64,000 nucleotides of DNA, taken from positions 1 through 64,000 of the IMG/VR virus record IMGVR_UViG_3300004369_000011; one strand, written 5' to 3'. Numbering within the stretch: the first letter of the stretch is position 1; each line of letters starts with the position of its first letter. Made by a program: the position numbers and the translations under genes. Source of the stretch: a virus. A model generated the notes under the pieces. It worked only from the letters and a program-made list of their open reading frames with translations. It was not told the DNA's origin and did not search any database. Of the stretch, positions 44,780 to 63,438 are shown one piece after another.

Positions 44780-44800
44780 AAAAGGCGCCGTAGCGCCTTC
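44778..44800 (-). terminator. intrinsic terminator
   Basis: AAGGCGC-UACG-GCGCCUU followed by a U-run on the - strand. Confidence 0.75.
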
Positions 44801-46886: not shown

Positions 46887-46911
46887 AAAAAGGGCCCTGT
46901 CAGCGGGCCCT
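46887..46911 (-). terminator. probable intrinsic terminator
   Basis: AGGGCCC stem followed by a U-run on the - strand. Confidence 0.6.
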
Positions 46912-48772: not shown

Positions 48773-50668
48773 TTATTTTTCCGCCCAAGTGTTTCCTATC
48801 GACGCGTCTGCTTTAGCGGGCACTGTTTTTAAAATTGTCTCAGCAGCTTCTTTCATACAGTCTTCTAAGATTTTTTTATAGTGGTTTTCTTTACCTACCT
48901 GTACTTCCAAAACAATTTCATCGTGCACACAAGCGATTAAATGCGCCTCGGCACCTAAATGTTCCCCTAGTTTTGCAATGGAGAGTTTTAAGATATCCGC
49001 CCCCGCTCCTTGAATTAAAGTATTAGCGCAAGCCATCATCTGAGCGTCATCATATGACAGGAGCCGGCGACGTCCCATAGGAGTGCGTACATAGCACCAA
49101 CCTTCTTCAACCATCGCCGCTCTTTCTCTGTGCCACTGACGCAAGCGTGGATACGCGCTGTGAAACGCTGTGTGTGCAATTTTTGCCTCAGAGAGCGTAA
49201 TAACCTTCCCGCTCTGAGCTGCGTAGGTTTTGTACTTACGAAATCCCATTCCGTACAGCAATGCAAAGTTAAGTGTTTTACCATCTTGTCTCTGAGAGTA
49301 AGTAACTTGATCGACTGGAACTTTGTAAATTAAGCTTGCCGTGACGTTATGTAGATCCTCTCCGTCTTGAAACGCTTTAATCATCTGAGGAATGCCTATT
49401 AGTTCAGCCCCAAGTCTCAGTTCTATTTGAGAAAAGTCACAAATTACAAATTTAAAACCCTGTGTGGGTATAAAGCACCCCCTAAATTCAGAGTTTCTAG
49501 GCACCTGCTGAATGTTCACCCCGAACACAGTTTTTTTTACTTTAGCTGTAGTTCTTTTCGCACCTGAAGACGTAAACCTTCCGCTATTCGCGCCGTATTG
49601 ATTGTAGCCACTATGTATCCTATGTGACACAGGGTTTATATTGTCTATGAGTTTATTAACGTGCTCTAGTTTAGTTTCTATCTTGACTCGCTTCCGATAC
49701 AAATTAAGAAGAAAATCCTCGCTATCAAATTCCGCCAACGCAACCTGATTCAATGTTGGCTTGCCTGTTACGTTGTCACGAGGTACAGCAATGCCCAGAA
49801 CAGCGAAGTAGTTAAGGCACTGCGCGTTTGAGCCGGGATTAAATTCTTTCTTAGGTTTTTTTCCGATGGCTATCGCACCCTCTGTTGTCTTTAACAATTT
49901 CATCTCAATAGGTAATAAGTTATCTAATGTTTCGCAAAATAATTTTGTAGTCGCGTTTAATTCAAGTTCAATAGTTTGTTTTAAATTTTTTAGCTTAGCT
50001 ATATCAACGCCAAATCCTCTGTGGCACATTAAAGCCACAGGGCGTATACACTGAGACTCTAAGGTGTATATCTCTAGTAGATTCTCTTCAGCTAACTCAG
50101 CTAACTGCGACGCCGCCACGCGGGGGAGAATGTCTACGTCTTTTGCGGCGTAAGCAATCTGTTCCTCCGTTAGCTTAGCCTGAGACCAGTCCGTCAGTCT
50201 TTGTTCTTTATCTATTTCTTCTTCAAGCCGCCGTTCTACAACAGCTTTTAAACTACAACTTACATCTGCAAAATAAGGCTTCTTTGCTTGAGGGGATATT
50301 CTTTTTTCCTTGAACCCGGCGCGTAAGCATTTTTCGGCCACGTAAGTGTCAAAAAGCTTGTTTTTAAAATCAATTCCAAGTTTAAGGTTGAACTGAAGAT
50401 CAAAGTTTAAATTATGCCCTACCAGCATTTCGCGAGTTTCAATATAGGTTTTTAACTCTTGTAGATCTGTTAATTTAAATAAATCAAAAACATAAACTAT
50501 CCGATCGGCTTGTTCTTCCTTTGTGTCACAGAGCTGAAGCAGACGCGGACGAGCAATGCGAGCGTCCAACCCCGTGGTCTCGTAGTCCAAACAAACTTTC
50601 TTACAGCTTTCTAAGTCTTGTAGCGCTTCCTGGGCTTGCTGTTGCGTTGTGATGTATTTAATTTGCAT
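48773..50668 (-). CDS. polA: family A DNA polymerase with 3'-5' exonuclease
   Basis: DYETTG, HNLNFD, YAAKD; DFSQIELR, RQDGKTLNFALLYGMG (Phe at the 762-equivalent position), VHDE. Confidence 0.95.
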   Translation of the reverse strand: MQIKYITTQQQAQEALQDLESCKKVCLDYETTGLDARIARPRLLQLCDTKEEQADRIVYVFDLFKLTDLQELKTYIETREMLVGHNLNFDLQFNLKLGIDFKNKLFDTYVAEKCLRAGFKEKRISPQAKKPYFADVSCSLKAVVERRLEEEIDKEQRLTDWSQAKLTEEQIAYAAKDVDILPRVAASQLAELAEENLLEIYTLESQCIRPVALMCHRGFGVDIAKLKNLKQTIELELNATTKLFCETLDNLLPIEMKLLKTTEGAIAIGKKPKKEFNPGSNAQCLNYFAVLGIAVPRDNVTGKPTLNQVALAEFDSEDFLLNLYRKRVKIETKLEHVNKLIDNINPVSHRIHSGYNQYGANSGRFTSSGAKRTTAKVKKTVFGVNIQQVPRNSEFRGCFIPTQGFKFVICDFSQIELRLGAELIGIPQMIKAFQDGEDLHNVTASLIYKVPVDQVTYSQRQDGKTLNFALLYGMGFRKYKTYAAQSGKVITLSEAKIAHTAFHSAYPRLRQWHRERAAMVEEGWCYVRTPMGRRRLLSYDDAQMMACANTLIQGAGADILKLSIAKLGEHLGAEAHLIACVHDEIVLEVQVGKENHYKKILEDCMKEAAETILKTVPAKADASIGNTWAEK

Positions 50669-50686: not shown

Positions 50687-50716
50687 AAAAAAAGAGGCGT
50701 CCCGTAGGACGCCCCT
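50687..50716 (-). terminator. intrinsic terminator
   Basis: GGCGUCC-UACG-GGACGCC followed by a U-run on the - strand. Confidence 0.8.
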
Positions 50717-51836: not shown

Positions 51837-53408
51837 CTACAACAATATTTTCTGAAAAACTGTAGAGGATTCGGGATCGTTTTGGGGGTCCACTACGTAC
51901 ACTTCATCGCTAAATTGTTGGAGTACATCAGCCTCCATTCCTATACAGAAAGCGTAAAAATTAATACTTTGCTCTTCTTTAAAGTTATTAAGACGTCGTA
52001 CAAAGGCATCAGGTACATTTGCTTGTCCGTCAGTAATTAATAGTATGTCTGCTTTTGGATCTATGTGAGCCTTTGTCATAGCATGCTCTAATACCGCAGT
52101 GAACGAAGTTCCTCCGGCAGTTCGCCACGTAAGAATAAAATCCAGTAGTTCTTTGTTATTTTTACGGTTGCTATCAAGCACCAAGCTGTTACAAATTCTG
52201 GCGTCAAATAAATGAATTTGAATTTCTCGCTTTTGCTTAAGACACTCGTCTGCGACAACAAAAGCTATTGCTTTCGACCATAATTCAGATTCTCCAGTCA
52301 TTGAGCCAGAAATGTCGATGTACATTACTACGGGTCCTCTATCAACGTCTTTAGATTTTGCTTCATAATCTTTAGTCAACAAAGTTTTTTGTGAATACTT
52401 AAGAGCAAACAGGGCACGTCCTTCCTGCGTGGCCGCCAACGCAATTTCAATAGGGAATGCTTTAGTTACTTCGTCAGAAAACTTAGCGCCAACTATATCG
52501 CTATAGTTCGTTTGAGTTTTTTTAGCTCGTCTTCTGTCATTCCAAGCTTTACGTAAGCCACCTAAACGAGAGGCTAGTTTCTGCAGTTTTTTATTATGAC
52601 TTAGTTTTTTAGCTAAAGCTTGTTTTTCTTGCAAATCTCCGCTGTGATGCCCCTGGCCTGTTTCTGTTCCAGCAAGAGCTGACATAGCATTTTCCAGTTC
52701 GTCAGCTTCTTTCTTAGCCCGCTCAACCGCCTCCGCTACCTTAGGTTGTAGTTTATTTCTGGCTTCGTTCAAGACTTGTTCCACGGCTTGACTCAATTGC
52801 TTTCCTTGCTGCCTTAGTTCGGTAGCCTCAAGGTCTTTTCCTTGTTTTTTAGCTTGAATGAAAGCGTCACGTAACTCGTTTAACTTCTCAGCACTATGCG
52901 CCAAAAGCTCTGCGGGCAGTTGACCCAATTCAATTTGCTCTTCTATAATTTCACTTAATTCGTTTAATAAACAAACGGCATTGTTGCCGCTATTAAATTG
53001 ATTGCCTATACAGTGGGTTGCAAGAGTCGGCCACGCGGGAGAATTACAGAGATCATTTAACAGGCCAATCCAAAAAGCAGATTCAGGTTTATATCCAGAA
53101 GGAAACGGGGGATCAAATCCTTCTTGTTTATTACGAAAATATTCTTCAGCCTCCGTCAAGGAGACTAGAGGAGTTACGTTGCCGCCCTGATAAAGACATT
53201 CAAAAATTTCTTTACCAAATCGAGATAGTTGTCGAATATCATATCGATCAATTAAGTAGTTGACCGTAGGTTTGGTGTCTCGTACAAAGTCTTCCCACAA
53301 ATAGTCTGCTAGCGCGGAGACCGCAACTACTATGGGCGCTGCATCAAGCAGGCGAATGTATTCGTGCAGGGTTTTGTTGTTCATGGATTTACTTAGTGAA
53401 CTCTCCAA
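51837..53408 (-). CDS. VWA-domain protein (ViaA-like)
   Basis: GPVVMYIDISGSM (MIDAS), GGTSF, ADILLITDG. Confidence 0.85.
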   Translation of the reverse strand: MESSLSKSMNNKTLHEYIRLLDAAPIVVAVSALADYLWEDFVRDTKPTVNYLIDRYDIRQLSRFGKEIFECLYQGGNVTPLVSLTEAEEYFRNKQEGFDPPFPSGYKPESAFWIGLLNDLCNSPAWPTLATHCIGNQFNSGNNAVCLLNELSEIIEEQIELGQLPAELLAHSAEKLNELRDAFIQAKKQGKDLEATELRQQGKQLSQAVEQVLNEARNKLQPKVAEAVERAKKEADELENAMSALAGTETGQGHHSGDLQEKQALAKKLSHNKKLQKLASRLGGLRKAWNDRRRAKKTQTNYSDIVGAKFSDEVTKAFPIEIALAATQEGRALFALKYSQKTLLTKDYEAKSKDVDRGPVVMYIDISGSMTGESELWSKAIAFVVADECLKQKREIQIHLFDARICNSLVLDSNRKNNKELLDFILTWRTAGGTSFTAVLEHAMTKAHIDPKADILLITDGQANVPDAFVRRLNNFKEEQSINFYAFCIGMEADVLQQFSDEVYVVDPQNDPESSTVFQKILL

Positions 53409-54573
53409 TGGTTTTAGCGATTCGTTGTGAATTGATATTTAACTCTTGGCACAATTTTGTAGCATCTTGTCGCGCTTTCAGAGTTACACGATAGTGTTCT
53501 CCCTCAAGAACTCCGTTTGCTTTTGCTTCTAGCACTTGTAAATCGTGATGAATCTTACGTAACTTACTAACCACGTGGTTTAAATCTTCTAGATTCTTGG
53601 CTTCTTTTGATTGAATCGCATGAAACTCACTGAGGACACCGGCTTGAGCCCGTTTAATGTCCTTTAACAACCTTTCAGCTGTAGGGATTACTTGATCCAA
53701 TACCTCCCGAATTACAGATACATCGTCAGGAGTCTGATAAACAATATGAATCAGGGAGTCGTGAAGATGTTCTGGATAAAGTTTATCGTCGCCCTGAACA
53801 AGAGCCCAGCCCCGCATGAACTTAAGAATCTGTACACGCCGTCGATCACTGATTGTTATGCCCCGCGTGACTAGCATCTCAAACACCTGAGCAAACGAGT
53901 CAAGAAACTCATCACTTGGAGCAATGAGAGCAGCCTCTTCTTGTAACTTGCCTAAATCGGCATAACTTAGATCTGATTCAACAGCAGGTCGCTGTTCGAT
54001 ACCCAGAGCCCATGTGTCTAGAAGTCTTTTTGAAATAGGAGCTTTGAGAAGATCTACTGTCGGTCTAAACAGAAAGCGATCGCAAAAAGCTTGGAGAGCT
54101 TCTTCTTGGGGAAAGCTGTTAGTCGCCGCAACGATAGATTGAATAGGTGTTGTCAACACCTCTTTGCCGTTATTAAACGTACGTTCGTTTAGGATCGTAA
54201 GCAGAGAATTTAGTACAGCGGAGGAGCCGCGAAAAAGCTCATCTAGGAAAGCTATGTTGGCAGTAGGAAGATAACCCTGTACATCCCGACTGTATTCGTC
54301 TTTAAGTAACTTACTTACAGCGACAGGACCGAACAACTCTGATGGATCTGTGGTGGGCGAAAGCAAATAACCGAAGAAGCTAGAACCTGTAAATCCGTTG
54401 GAAACGGCGCGAACTAATTCAGATTTACCTGTGCCGGGTAGACCAAACAAGAACGCATTTTGCTTGGTAATAACTGCAGCCAGTAAGCCGTCGATGACGG
54501 GTGCTCGCTCTAAGAAAGCATTGTTAAGTGAGCCTCTAAATTTTTGAAGAGAGGTAAAAAGTGTGTCGTTCAT
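53389..54573 (-). CDS. MoxR-family AAA+ ATPase (RavA-like)
   Basis: GLPGTGKS, ELFGP, FLDE, LNSLLTILNER, AATN, DRFLFR, ISDRR. Confidence 0.9.
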   Translation of the reverse strand: MNDTLFTSLQKFRGSLNNAFLERAPVIDGLLAAVITKQNAFLFGLPGTGKSELVRAVSNGFTGSSFFGYLLSPTTDPSELFGPVAVSKLLKDEYSRDVQGYLPTANIAFLDELFRGSSAVLNSLLTILNERTFNNGKEVLTTPIQSIVAATNSFPQEEALQAFCDRFLFRPTVDLLKAPISKRLLDTWALGIEQRPAVESDLSYADLGKLQEEAALIAPSDEFLDSFAQVFEMLVTRGITISDRRRVQILKFMRGWALVQGDDKLYPEHLHDSLIHIVYQTPDDVSVIREVLDQVIPTAERLLKDIKRAQAGVLSEFHAIQSKEAKNLEDLNHVVSKLRKIHHDLQVLEAKANGVLEGEHYRVTLKARQDATKLCQELNINSQRIAKTIGEFTK

Positions 54574-59923: not shown

Positions 59924-61932
59924 CCGTCTATATATTGCAGAGCAGGAATAACATTCTCCTCCAGTTGTTCGATGATGTCGAAAGGCAGAAGATCAGTGTC
60001 GATTAGATACTTGAAGCGGGCTAAAGATTCTTTAGCCAGGGTGTAACAATTCATCTTTTTAATATCAGTCGGAGCGGAGAAGTTCATCGGGAAATAACTT
60101 TGTCTTGGGTGTCTTCAACTTGAGAAGTAACAACAACACGTTGACACAGTGAGTTATATGCTGCAGGACATTCGCGCATCAAGATTTTGCGAAGATCGTG
60201 CTGCATGTGATGATTAACAACTGCAAGTAGTTGATCTTTGTGAAACTCTGAAAAGTAAGGGCTGTAGCTCATGGGTTTGTTATGCAAGTGGCAGGGGAGA
60301 TGTTGACTGTTGAAATGTTGCCCTCAATAGAAATGAGAGCAGCATCAAGTTCACTGATAACTTTCTTGTTGTCTGCGTAGATAACTGGATAGTTATTTAG
60401 TAGGCGAATCAACTCGGAACGATAGTCAATTAGTGCAGTCCGGAGCGTGGTGGTTTGCAGCGTGATCATGTGAGTTCAATTAGGTTCTGTTTTTCGAGCA
60501 AGATTAGGTGATCAAGTACATCGCCAAGGGTAGATCGAACGTACTCATCTTTCAGTGCAGCTTGATCGTAAGCATCGTATACAGTTGAGTACAATTTGTT
60601 GAACTGTTGTTTGTTCATGATTCCCTCCATGCTTTGCAGCAACGTGAGCTTACATAATAATCAGCAGAGTAGTCAGCGTAGCGATACTCTCGCACTACAC
60701 AAGATGCCTCTTGGTAAGAATCAAACTCGTCCATAGTTTCAAGGTAGTTGTGATTAATTGATCTGCGTTGGATGTAGTACATAATTAGAAGGTGATTGTT
60801 TGTGTAGTGTCAGAGAAAGTCTTGGTGCGTAGGTACTCAAGCGTAGTTAGATCATTCTTTGCCCAATCACCCCCAGGATGATTTGGAGTTTCATTAAGTA
60901 GTTGTAAAAGATCCTGTTCATATGCACGAATCATGCGGCGCATGAAGTCACGTTCTGCATTGTAGTTAGTGTTGTAGATGGCCATGATGTTGTTGTGATT
61001 GTGTGATTGATGCCACGCGAAGCGTGATGTCTTGAGACAACTTAAACAGGTCTGGTGTTGCCTCAAGCTAACTTAAACAAGCCAGAAGTTATCTAGCTTG
61101 AACTCATTAACAAACGATTTAGCAATCGCTTCCGCCGCAACTAAACGCTCAGGCTTCGCAAATAGCGAGTTCCACGATGTAGTTAGTGACCCATACTCTC
61201 GCTGATAATCTTTAGCCGCTGGGGTGCACAAATACCGTTCTATGTAACCGATTGCTCGGTCAAGATCGAACGTATTGTTAAGCCAGAACTTAGATAAAGT
61301 CTTGCCCACACTGTTGTAGTGTGCACTAGAGAAGTTAACTGCATACTCTTCTAGTTCGCGTGCAGCTTCAGTGTCGATTGTGTAAGTCATAGTTGGGTGA
61401 TAAGAATTAGAGTGCGGAGTGATAAACAATTTTCGCGTTCTCCCTTGCACTGGCGGGCATCTTTGTGATCTTCATTGCGAAGTCGATTGCCGCAGTTTCA
61501 TTAAGTGCAGCAACAATAACGTCACCGATTCTATAACCGGGGAAGCGAACATCGTAGCGCTCCATGATGTCGAAGTTAGCCATAGTTAAGAGGTGATTGT
61601 TAGTTAAACGATGATAATTAGGAGTAGTAGCGGCCCATAATAACGTCGTTGTCTTCAGTGAACTTCATAAGAATCCCACTGAAGAATGAGTCGCCGTGGT
61701 AACCCTCCCAGCCTGGGAATGAATCACCCTCGTTGCGCATGAAGTCACCCAGGCAGTAGTAATAACCTTTATAGTTTACGAATTGGGTATCTTCAAACTC
61801 AGTTTCAGTTAGGTAGTCAAACTGTTTGCGGAGTTTGATAGTTTCAGCGTCGCCGATGTACAACTCAGCGCATAACCCTGAGAATGTTTCTCTAGGCTGA
61901 TTGTTTGTGATGATGGTTAGAGCAGCAGTCAT
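59866..61932 (-). other. cluster of small early hypothetical genes (59866-60087, 60084-60287, 60269-60469, 60785-61066, 61073-61450, 61618-61932, plus ORFs under 60 aa)
   Basis: densely packed co-oriented short ORFs downstream of the early promoters. Confidence 0.6.
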
Positions 61933-61962
61933 GATGATTCACCTGTATGCAATGTGATGTAG

Positions 61963-62480
61963 TGAGGGAAGAATCCCTCAGTTTGATGTAGTATCAAAGA
62001 GAGAGAATCTGTTAGGTTGGTGATCATAAATGATCTAACCTTAATCTAGATCAACTGTACATCTTGATGATGTAGAGGCTATCAGGAACCTACCCCAAGT
62101 TAGTTAGGGAAAGTCGGCCTAAACTTAAAGTAACGTACAAAGCGCACTAAATACATGCAAAGCATATACTTAATGCGCCAAGTGCGTCAGTTCTTTGTAT
62201 TTAGTTCCACGTTGGCGATGCGTGGTAGAAGTTAACGCCGTTAAAAGTGATGACAGGAAGTCTATGGGCTCTGTCCAGAGTACCTGCACTAGACACAGTG
62301 ACTCTGGACAGAGGAAAGGAATCGATACGGCGCACACTTAACGAGTCGGGTTGCAACTCTATTGTGCTCGGGGGATCACTCGCGCCCCTAGTTCCATTTT
62401 CTGGCCATATCTGTTATGCAGAATAAGTTAACTGTGCCTTAGGCTTTCCGTACAAACTATCTCAGTACAGTTAACTATTC
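61963..62480 (-). ncRNA. candidate large structured leader or non-coding RNA
   Basis: no ORF of 60 aa or more; at least nine inverted-repeat stems, several nested. Confidence 0.5.
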
Positions 62481-62545
62481 AGTTTTCAAGGTGCGATCGG
62501 TTGCCCGATGCCTCAGATCCTACAGCATGAAGCGCAGCTTGTCGG
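62476..62545 (-). promoter_or_regulatory. early promoter P2 + GCAA hairpin + boxA-like element
   Basis: CCGACA-17-TAGGAT; ATCGG-GCAA-CCGAT; GCACCTTGAAAACTGAATA. Confidence 0.65.
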
Positions 62546-62659
62546 GATGGTTGTTTCTGAATCGAAACATTGCGTAACGTTGGCGGGATCCTGACCATTG
62601 GTCTAGGGATCACAGGCCTTGCCACGCGTCACCCGATTGGCTGGGCTGGGCTGATCGGA

Positions 62660-62732
62660 TTGTCGAGGTGCTGCCAATCGGTCTCCCGTTCGGCTTGAGC
62701 ACAGTATGGGCACACCAGGGGCCCTAGGTCAA
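62660..62732 (-). promoter_or_regulatory. early promoter P1 + GAGA hairpin + boxA-like element
   Basis: TTGACC-18-CATACT; GCCGAACGG-GAGA-CCGATTGGC; GCACCTCGACAA. Confidence 0.65.
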
Positions 62733-63225
62733 GCCCTGAAACATTAAGAAAGTCTGAAGCCTAGGTGCGCTGGGTGAGGGGAGAGGAACCGCACGCGCTC
62801 GCGTGTATATATACATACTAAAATTGAAACCTGCCTGCCAGGTCTGACCGACTCAGCACCAGGAGAGGGGATGATAGGAAGCCTCCCCCGCCTATGTATA
62901 ACTAACCCTGCTCGCTATGTATAAAGAACTGGACGCAATCTGCCCGCAATGTGCCCTTTTTTTTAATATACAGCCTTGTTTGACGACGGGGCCGAGAACC
63001 CCCTGAGTATCAGGCAGGTAAATTGGGTATAAAAGGTCCCCCCGTCAATAAATTGATACTCAAAACCGGTAAGGCTTGTTAAAAAAAATTTTGGCCGCCC
63101 GTTTTTTAAGGTAAAAAGCTGTTCAGGTCGATAATTTTGTTTAATTTGAGATAAGGGTGGGGTAATGCAGGGTACTGGCCCCTATACTCTGACGTGTAGA
63201 CTCTTTTTGAGCTTAGAGAGGTTCC

Positions 63226-63438
63226 ATGACTGACCATGCACTTGTTGATAAGTTAAAAACTGCGGGGGTGTGTTGTGCTGAGTGCGGGGACAGGTACGGA
63301 ACCCCCCGTGGAAAGTATTCGTCTTGGTGGATGGGTGTTTGCAATGTGTGCGATGCAGAGGCACCCGTCACCGAGGTACGTAATTTTCGCTATTTGCATC
63401 GTGGGCTTGTTGAACTTGTTGAAAATGCCAAGATCTAG
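63226..63438 (+). CDS. small Zn-ribbon protein
   Basis: GAGG RBS; two CxxC motifs. Confidence 0.6.
   Translation: MTDHALVDKLKTAGVCCAECGDRYGTPRGKYSSWWMGVCNVCDAEAPVTEVRNFRYLHRGLVELVENAKI

Follow-up and report, generated by a model that had tools for sequence, protein, structure and literature searches.

Introduction

Antitermination mediated by boxA RNA and Nus factors is textbook knowledge for phage lambda, where it works together with the N protein, and for ribosomal RNA (rrn) operons, and it was later extended to suhB and to clustered regularly interspaced short palindromic repeat (CRISPR) arrays. The put RNA of phage HK022 is another case, a protein-independent antiterminator in a phage early leader, consisting of structured RNA that acts on the host polymerase; to our knowledge, it works without boxA or Nus factors. 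Here we analyze the region that heads the early gene train of a probable cyanophage, contained in the first 64,000 bases (positions 1-64000, from here on the window) of the 72,080-bp IMG/VR virus record IMGVR_UViG_3300004369_000011, whose completeness is estimated at 89%. The region holds, on the - strand, two units in which a hairpin is directly followed by a boxA-like word. An earlier reading of the letters (the original prediction) had proposed that these are two tandem promoter/hairpin/boxA units by which the phage recruits the rRNA antitermination factors of its host. Judging from the sequence and its relatives, we conclude that the module is real and conserved, and that it differs from the Nus/boxA antitermination described so far in that a phage carries an rrn-type boxA without a recognised N.

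According to passages of PMC5725501, boxA recruits NusB and S10, and the complex formed on rrn operons speeds elongation and resists Rho; the same passages document Nus factors without lambda N as acting against Rho-dependent termination, and state that lambda antitermination at intrinsic terminators needs N. The rrn complex 'probably' also prevents intrinsic termination, in the wording of a passage of PMC10250234. Use of boxA ahead of CRISPR arrays has been reported (Stringer et al., 2020, eLife 9:e58182, cited in an excerpt of PMC13753749). As for cyanobacteria, part of PMC12642595 gives Rho as absent from them, and part of PMC8461337 describes their rrn internal transcribed spacer (ITS) as carrying the boxA GAACCTTGAAAA followed by the D4 element CTGCATA. 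In the literature searched, with subscription journals mostly outside its coverage, no description of a phage rrn-type boxA without N was found, and none on cyanophages; the matches were lambda-type N-dependent systems and cellular boxA targets.

Results and discussion

Two hairpin-boxA units ahead of the early genes

When positions 63000-62300 were read again, the architecture and coordinates of unit 1 on the - strand matched the original prediction base for base, and all the elements of unit 2 were likewise found as claimed (Table 1). Hairpin 1 follows the -10 of the promoter-like site P1 by 8 nt, folds with -10.8 kcal/mol (z -3.95, equalled by none of 200 shuffled sequences) and ends 1 nt ahead of boxA1. 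The layout of unit 2 is a GCAA hairpin (equalled by 2 of 200 shuffles), which ends 1 nt ahead of boxA2, and then GCACCTTGAAAACTGAATAG, a strong match to the boxA and downstream element of cyanobacterial rrn leaders, with AATAG at +3 after boxA2. The degenerate 12-mer GCACCT[CT]GA[AC]AA occurs exactly twice on both strands of the 72,080-bp genome, once in each unit.

The likeness was scored with a weight matrix built from 27 Cyanobacteriota rrn leaders; 36 loci had been examined, of which seven had too little upstream DNA and two with implausible sites were dropped, and in two cases (L291 and L292) the site after promoter and hairpin was taken. With a 23-mer matrix, unit 2 scores 29.4 bits, a value reached by none of 200 shuffled genomes (maximum 23.9). 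The 11 bases downstream of boxA had no part in choosing the training sites, and the downstream 11-mer of unit 2 alone is the best such site of the genome. As a sequence match, unit 2 is far beyond chance.

Conservation in distant and close relatives

Distant relatives were found with an alignment of the 104-aa protein of the first sizeable early gene and a 55%-identical homologue, which gave 19 viral contigs with 33-56% protein identity; 13 of them have at least 1 kb upstream of the gene, and most of the contigs that cover the module are 55-86 kb long. The unit-1 module was present on the strand of the gene, 613-1384 nt upstream of it, in 12 of these 13 (11 distinct sequences), including phages in which the protein next to the module is only 44-56% identical; the remaining one (L345) has no unit-1 module. 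With the window and two close relatives (L270 and L272) this makes 14 distinct sequences, in five groups. All 14 have boxA1, preceded by a hairpin of -9 to -15 kcal/mol that lies 7-8 nt after the -10 and ends 0-1 nt before boxA. The stems of this hairpin are fully different between groups, and its loop is of GNRA type (GAGA, GCGA, GCAA) in 11 of the 14. In the distant relatives boxA1 reads G[AC]A[CT][CT]TNGA[AC]AA; positions G1, A3, T6, G8, A9, A11 and A12 are invariant and position 7, which is variable in cyanobacterial rrn leaders too, is free. Eleven of the 12 distant relatives have modules that open with GG-TTGAC[CGA], an 18-nt spacer and a weak -10 (the exception, L338, has no TTGAC). Most of the 14 sequences keep the TTGAC[CGA] -35, the 18-nt spacer and a weak NANNNT-type -10 at one fixed spacing from the hairpin, the group B members L332 and L339 reading TCTCAT.

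Of 11 aligned sequences, 8 retain the second word, boxA2 with GAATAG. Group C has it ~150 nt downstream as GAACCT[TC]GA[ACT]AA followed by NNGAATA[GC], L328 reading GAACCTTGGTAA. Group B has, at the place of hairpin 2, a GAAA/GAGA hairpin with one compensatory pair (CGGCCC/GGGTCG versus CGGGCC/GGCTCG). Conservation of the boxA-like 12-mer in relatives, which had been set as a test beforehand, was thus borne out for both words, and it supports the view that they belong to real, selected modules of the rrn type, hairpin then boxA.

Among close relatives, four sequences with 91-98% DNA identity were obtained from a protein-guided scan of metagenome contigs; L270 and L272 cover both units, L269 covers unit 2 and L268 the downstream leader alone. 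Wherever L270, L272 and L269 cover them, the promoter-like elements and the hairpins of both units are kept, and a T-to-C change in L270 and L272 turns the G-U pair of hairpin 1 into G-C. In L270 boxA1 reads GAACCTTGAAAA, the perfect consensus, and in L272 GCACCTCGAAAA; L269 and L270 have the same boxA2 as the window, and L272 has GCACCTTGACAATCG in its place (a GACAA-TCG variation); natural boxA variants thus comprise GAACCUUGAAAA, GCACCUCGAAAA and GACAA forms. Identity over both units is 94.9% in both L270 and L272 and 89-97% in the flanks, and because it is not clearly above that of the flanks, relatives this close give no proof of selection. Among the contigs of four public runs (three studies) were strains 90-99% alike that cover 44-64 kb. 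Searches of viral contigs for related loci with single proteins gave no matches, and the exact 25-mer formed by boxA2 and its downstream bases was not found in viral contigs, in both cases in a set from which near-identical records may have been left out.

Two further observations were made on these contigs. In one of them the match ends at 62492, and the junction with a different upstream sequence falls exactly at boxA2, whose word there is GAACCTTGAAAA; this single contig gives only a hint that an alternative upstream sequence may be joined at that point. In run X4, contig depth is ~104-107 over the gene-free region (62010-63343) versus ~22 in the flanking genes, an excess which suggests that more phage strains share the control region than share the flanking genes.

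The persistence of GNRA loops despite changed stems, extending to the second hairpin (GCAA, GAAA, GAGA), could also be understood if the modules were nut-like sites, at which an unrecognised phage protein would bind the hairpin as lambda N does on boxB while boxA would supply the Nus factors. N proteins are short and variable, and many of the small early open reading frames (ORFs) of this phage have no known family, both of which speak for such a protein. In agreement with the original prediction, no N/Q-like antiterminator, and no sigma factor or RNA polymerase either, was recognised among the 116 ORFs, each scanned against at least one of Pfam (97 ORFs) and PHROGs (69 ORFs), in searches of a kind that N proteins escape. 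We regard this explanation as quite unlikely: hairpin-then-boxA is the order of rrn operons and the opposite of that in lambda nut, cyanobacterial rrn leaders and ITS share it without any phage protein, and an arginine-rich N-terminal peptide was not evident in the early ORF translations, inspected by eye with no formal test.

Likeness to cyanobacterial rrn signals

The order of hairpin and boxA that the original prediction had drawn from rrn leaders was indeed seen in cyanobacteria, in leaders as well as in the ITS. Their rrn leader consists of TTGACA-17-TAnAnT, ~7 nt, a hairpin, GAACCT[ACT]GA[AC]AA (also GAACCGAGA[AC]AA), 3 nt and AATAGTTT, and their ITS has a hairpin followed by G[AC]ACCTTGAAAACTGCA. 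The motif GNACCTTGAAAACTG was found in 93 of 301 Cyanobacteriota genomes sampled, with ~195 matches versus ~10 for the reversed control, GA being the commonest form and GC frequent. In five genomes the ITS boxA equals the phage's own GCACCTTGAAAACTG and is situated 333-406 nt past the 16S 3' end, directly after a hairpin. Where unit 1 departs from the ITS word, with C at positions 7 and 10, it stays within normal leader variation. At the level of sequence, unit 1 resembles the leader boxA and unit 2 the spacer boxA of cyanobacteria.

For specificity, a matrix from 21 phage boxA sites was run over ~430 nt upstream of 16S in a sample of each of four phyla. The 28 leaders of Cyanobacteriota gave a median best score of 15.5 bits, with 16 leaders at 14 bits or more; the corresponding values were 5.0 bits and none for Pseudomonadota (18 leaders), 4.5 bits and one for Bacteroidota (17 leaders), and 8.3 bits and three for Actinomycetota (14 leaders). 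The proposed closeness of the phage words to cyanobacterial rrn/ITS boxA therefore held when compared with the other three phyla, and the far better fit supports both the reading of the module as an rrn mimic and a cyanobacterial host; none of these conclusions draws on two genomes of the sample that are marked as unpublished. Recent capture of a host rrn fragment was ruled out, since the leader shares at most 19-26 nt with loci among the matches listed.

The same signal appears outside rrn operons in this phylum. Among the matches listed, GCACCTTGAAAACTG stands directly ahead of CRISPR arrays in the cyanobacterial genomes G002, G013 and G097, and Calothrix G003 has a GAACC variant, which indicates that the signal works outside rrn in cyanobacteria. 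At the loci L244 (identical to L151), L245, L287 and L288, in four cyanobacterial genomes, a promoter and a boxA are found 25-45 nt before long CRISPR arrays with CRISPR-DR5 repeats, although cyanobacteria lack Rho. Other settings of the word were also recorded. In the filamentous cyanobacteria G001, G004 and G005, a conserved non-coding element of ~330 nt exists in several copies; its start is promoter-like, and a GCACCTTGAAAACTG boxA lies within it. The genes downstream of its copies (L248, L252, L247, L250, L258, L262, L264) vary. Rfam scans of five of these seven, a set without L247 and L252's twin, gave no match at the gathering score besides opposite-strand tRNAs in L250. In the viral contigs L060, L106 and L111 a promoter, hairpin and boxA directly precede tRNA genes, and in the cyanobacterial L243 and L251 same-strand tRNA genes are found several hundred nt downstream of boxA. 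Among the matches listed for 15-mer contexts in viral contigs, [AC]ATA follows in 36 of 93 distinct contexts versus 0.7 expected; rrn-type boxA thus seems common in viral contigs, some of which may be host DNA.

A number of results weigh against the interpretation of the two words as functional rrn-type modules. With the 12-mer matrix, unit 2 is the best site of the genome, yet 24.5% of 200 shuffled genomes score as high, and that matrix is circular because its training sites were chosen by likeness to the consensus. The boxA1 word, with 13.4 bits in this phage and 20.0 in L270 on the 27-leader matrix, is outside the top 8 on the 23-mer matrix and is not significant alone in this genome, so that unit 1 needs support other than its score. 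Changes among close relatives also concentrate in it, its 12 nt holding 3 of the 13 differences that separate 257 nt from L270. In group B boxA2 is degenerate, although the 29-mer around the putative second promoter is kept; Synechococcus phage S-EIVl, the nearest cultured relative, lacks a boxA unit where its early train begins; and contigs from two RNA libraries span not only the region but also the DNA upstream of P1. Finally, a 19-mer identical to that of the phage is the rrn leader and ITS boxA of many Clostridia among the matches listed, and the word alone therefore does not fix the host. The 12-mer scores, and the close relatives that are too alike to reveal selection, are what could be expected if the boxA likeness were a by-product and the region a conserved structured 5' untranslated region or operator without any Nus role. 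Such a by-product is highly improbable in view of the 23-nt match, which no shuffled genome reproduced, of the recurrence of the word with its seven invariant positions at the same place beside a hairpin in distant relatives, and of its specific match to the cyanobacterial rrn type.

Predicted RNA structure between and after the boxA sites

The interval 62700-62440 folds with a z of -4.19 on the - strand versus -1.41 on the + strand. In separate folds, all of the 11 sequences analyzed have a predicted long-range helix whose start is 1-2 nt past boxA1 and whose end is 5-28 nt short of boxA2; the structured domain inside it measures roughly 110-140 nt. In groups A and B the helix reads UCC.GAU.CAGC / GCUG.UA.GGA, and in group C it is unrelated (e.g. 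CAACUCUCGC / GCGAGAGUUG). Local folds leave boxA unpaired, and the full fold has part of boxA1 paired with 62516-62513. For the three close sequences, RNAalifold returned 92 pairs, four of them with compensatory changes, one in an inner hairpin (GUUUC/GAAAC becomes GUCUC/GAGAC in L270) and three in the long hairpin after boxA2. Across phage groups, MAFFT and RNAalifold gave no common structure for unit 1 and only five pairs for the whole interval; cross-group covariation consequently rests on the separate folds, which has to be added to the points against the interpretation.

Downstream of boxA2, the untranslated leader of ~540 nt is also predicted to be strongly folded (none of 100 shuffles folds as well; z -2.35 on the + strand), and a scan found no terminator-like site on its - strand. 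Its identity to L270 and L272 is 91-97%, and its sole ORF, of 32 aa, is unconvincing and has an end that shifts frame in the relatives. The leader includes a perfect 13-bp hairpin, and its 3' end is nearly invariant across five close relatives. With its predicted helix, the layout resembles a miniature pre-rRNA followed by a structured untranslated leader.

This arrangement raises the possibility that the boxA pair and the helix serve the biogenesis of a small stable RNA (62659-62518, ~140 nt) that would be cut by RNase III like 16S rRNA, any downstream effect being secondary. The succession of boxA, helix around a structured RNA and boxA predicted in the 11 sequences agrees with this, as do the strand specificity of the fold, the compensatory pair inside the domain and the fact that, in the relevant passages of PMC10250234, rrn leader-trailer helices are RNase III sites. 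We nevertheless see it as rather unlikely, because the sequence of the inner domain differs between groups A/B and C and Rfam contains no match, either at E<=1 over 61800-63300 or at gathering thresholds in the whole window, CRISPR repeats included; no tRNA or tmRNA was found in the window either.

Terminator-like hairpins and the putative second promoter

The original prediction had placed intrinsic terminators in the gene train at 50.7, 46.9 and 44.8 kb, and terminator-like hairpins are present at all three places (Table 1). The distances of 25 and 54 nt to the next gene starts leave no room for a promoter after the first two, and some read-through is therefore needed; in particular, the DNA polymerase gene must be reached by read-through of the hairpin at 50716-50693. 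We infer that a complex formed at the leader boxA might raise read-through of these terminators, 12-18 kb away.

The notion of two tandem promoters was not supported. The putative second promoter, P2, reaches 8/12 and was not flagged by the consensus scan (in which the promoter-like sites of the region, five in all, are not in excess of shuffled sequences, with 3.5 +/- 2.1), it overlaps the predicted helix strand 62538-62518, and it has no counterpart in group C. P2 is probably RNA structure, namely the 3' strand of the long-range helix, rather than a promoter. Given these features, both boxA sites are read as lying on one transcript from P1, and such an rrn-operon-like transcript with two boxA sites is a better fit than tandem promoters. 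If the units were nonetheless independent, each with its own promoter, hairpin, boxA and transcript, their main job would be read-through at 50.7, 46.9 and 44.8 kb. In favour of this, the 29-nt P2 element hardly varies within groups A and B where its flanks diverge, a hairpin follows the -10 of P2 by 7-8 nt, as at P1, two of the three terminators directly precede gene starts, and the rrn complex probably prevents intrinsic termination, according to the passage of PMC10250234 mentioned above. We consider it unlikely: besides the weaknesses of P2, group C has boxA2 without any P2-like element, the promoter-like sites at 44725-44698 and 56421-56393 indicate that the train may be several transcription units, and an action of an N-less leader boxA over 12-18 kb is not documented in the portions of the literature consulted.

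Proposed mechanism

On the strength of the sequence comparisons, the region is the conserved 5' control module of the putative early transcript, with a layout like that of the first part of a host rRNA operon. In the explanation that we favour, and that we hold to be probable, although by no means assured, host RNA polymerase would start at P1, around 62696, and the nascent RNA would fold a GNRA-capped hairpin immediately followed by a single-stranded, leader-type boxA. A long-range helix would then close the structured domain of ~140 nt, after which the second hairpin and the spacer-type boxA with its AAUAG element would emerge, and ~540 nt of folded untranslated leader would connect to the early and replication genes. 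Host NusB and S10 (NusE) may, as on rrn operons and CRISPR leaders, bind both boxA RNAs of this single transcript, and NusA, NusG and other factors may join them to form a fast polymerase complex, resistant to pausing and termination and tethered to the leader. The tethered complex could protect the long untranslated RNA and help its folding. It might also raise the read-through of intrinsic terminators in the 22-kb train, which is the least supported step.

The absence of Rho from cyanobacteria also counts against the proposal, since the best-documented N-independent role of boxA cannot apply there. If the host is a cyanobacterium, the module must act via pausing, elongation rate, RNA folding or intrinsic terminators.

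Genomic context and identity of the phage

Both units are located in a divergent, gene-free stretch of ~1.3 kb. On one side, the region heads a - strand train that runs from 61932 down to 39958 and comprises small early genes and replication genes, among them those for a dCTP deaminase, a MoxR ATPase and a VWA protein, a family A DNA polymerase, an exonuclease and a primase; the + strand genes of the opposite side begin at 63226. Coordinates are collected in Table 1.

Table 1. Positions of the features discussed in the text
Feature	Position	Strand	Details
P1, promoter-like site	62703-62732	-	TTGACC 62732-62727, 18-nt spacer, CATACT 62708-62703; 9/12 in consensus scan
Hairpin 1 (boxB-like)	62673-62694	-	GAGA tetraloop; 8 pairs including one G-U, one A/A mismatch
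boxA1, leader type	62660-62671	-	GCACCTCGACAA; third-best weight-matrix 12-mer of the genome
Structured domain closed by long-range helix	62518-62659	-	5' strand 62659-62640, 3' strand 62538-62518; predicted folds
'Promoter 2' (P2)	62517-62545	-	CCGACA 62545-62540, 17-nt spacer, TAGGAT 62522-62517; 8/12, unflagged by scan
Hairpin 2	62496-62509	-	ATCGG-GCAA-CCGAT, 7 nt after TAGGAT; -5.6 kcal/mol, z -4.64
boxA2 and D4-like element, spacer (ITS) type	62476-62494	-	GCACCTTGAAAACTGAATA; boxA2 62494-62483, D4-like CTGAATA; best weight-matrix match
Long hairpin starting in AAUAG directly after boxA2	62421-62480	-	L272: three compensatory pairs, two broken
Untranslated structured leader, ~540 nt, before first sizeable gene	61933-62482	-	minimum free energy -176 kcal/mol, z -5.90
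First sizeable early gene	61618-61932	-	104 aa, no assigned function; query for finding relatives
Terminator-like hairpin	50693-50716	-	10 pairs (7 G-C), T7; 25 nt before DNA polymerase start at 50668
Terminator-like hairpin, two-way, inside train	46891-46911	-	54 nt before gene start
Terminator-like hairpin	44781-44800	-	followed by promoter-like site 44725-44698

Upstream of P1, at 62827-62900 on the - strand, there is a promoter-like TATACA-18 nt-TATCAT with a terminator-like hairpin (62845-62827), and palindromes are found around 62800; all of these are kept in L270 and L272 and may be operators. Within the replication module, a MoxR-type AAA ATPase (bpMoxR) adjoins a VWA-domain protein (51837-54573, - strand).

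The gene content indicates that this is probably a cyanophage, with a cyanobacterial host. Homologues in Synechococcus phage S-EIVl were found for 15 of 119 ORFs, with a shared order of structural genes and a major head protein that is 69% identical; one early protein belongs to the Pfam family Kyano_Gp96 and three proteins are 2OG-Fe(II) oxygenases. At the DNA level, no match to the phage was found among 50,697 phage records.

Significance and comparison with known systems

If the proposal is true, early transcription complexes would be fast and terminator-resistant over 22 kb, and the module might also release a processed small RNA or draw NusB/S10 off the host rrn operons. A wider claim, that probable cyanophages of roughly 55-86 kb use a miniature pre-rRNA to take over the rRNA transcription complex of a Rho-less host without a phage antiterminator, can only be advanced tentatively. 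A module in a phage which reproduces the signals of host rrn operons, those of the leader as well as those of the spacer, and which appears to need no phage protein, would constitute a distinct form of viral takeover of host transcription. Being a short, portable element with natural boxA1 variants among near-identical strains, it could provide a handle on the role of the Nus complex in Rho-less cyanobacteria, whose boxA is well conserved, and the boxA type may serve as a host predictor for uncultured phages.

Compared with lambda nut sites (and those of mEpimmI phages, in the part of PMC11893012 that describes them), the locus shares the position in a phage early leader, a boxA beside a GNRA-like hairpin and the presumed use of host Nus factors; in lambda, however, boxA precedes boxB and N is essential, whereas in both units described here the hairpin precedes boxA. 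With HK022 put it has in common a structured early-leader RNA; put is not known to need boxA or Nus factors, and this region gave no Rfam match at E<=1. The CRISPR leaders of cyanobacteria present the same succession of a promoter and a boxA before a long non-coding transcript outside rrn, but the phage region lacks downstream repeats and has two boxA sites with hairpins. The antitermination complex of Escherichia coli rrn operons (rrnTAC; boxB-boxA-boxC with NusB, S10, NusA, NusG, SuhB and S4) is, by analogy, the presumed mechanism: as passages of PMC10250234, PMC5725501 and PMC13753749 describe it, the complex depends on boxA RNA without requiring a phage protein, and the RNA on which it acts is long, structured and not translated. 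It differs in its boxA word, which is of the GCTCTTTAACAA type in Pseudomonadota, and in its documented target Rho, absent from cyanobacteria according to the part of PMC12642595 cited above.

As regards cyanobacterial rrn operons, the phage module precedes protein genes and encloses ~140 nt instead of 16S rRNA, it has no sequence likeness to the host loci compared beyond 19-23 nt, and at boxA position 2 a C stands in 9 of the 14 unit-1 sites of phages and an A or G in 26 of the 27 rrn leaders used (the single C being that of L326). In other respects phage and host coincide. The order and spacing of -10, 7-8 nt, hairpin, 0-4 nt and boxA are the same, the words of unit 1 are within the leader variation ACCT[ACT]GA[AC]AA, and 17 of the 19 bases of unit 2 agree with the ITS type, AATAG at +3 being shared as well. 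In both, two boxA sites probably lie on one transcript, with a long-range helix after the first.

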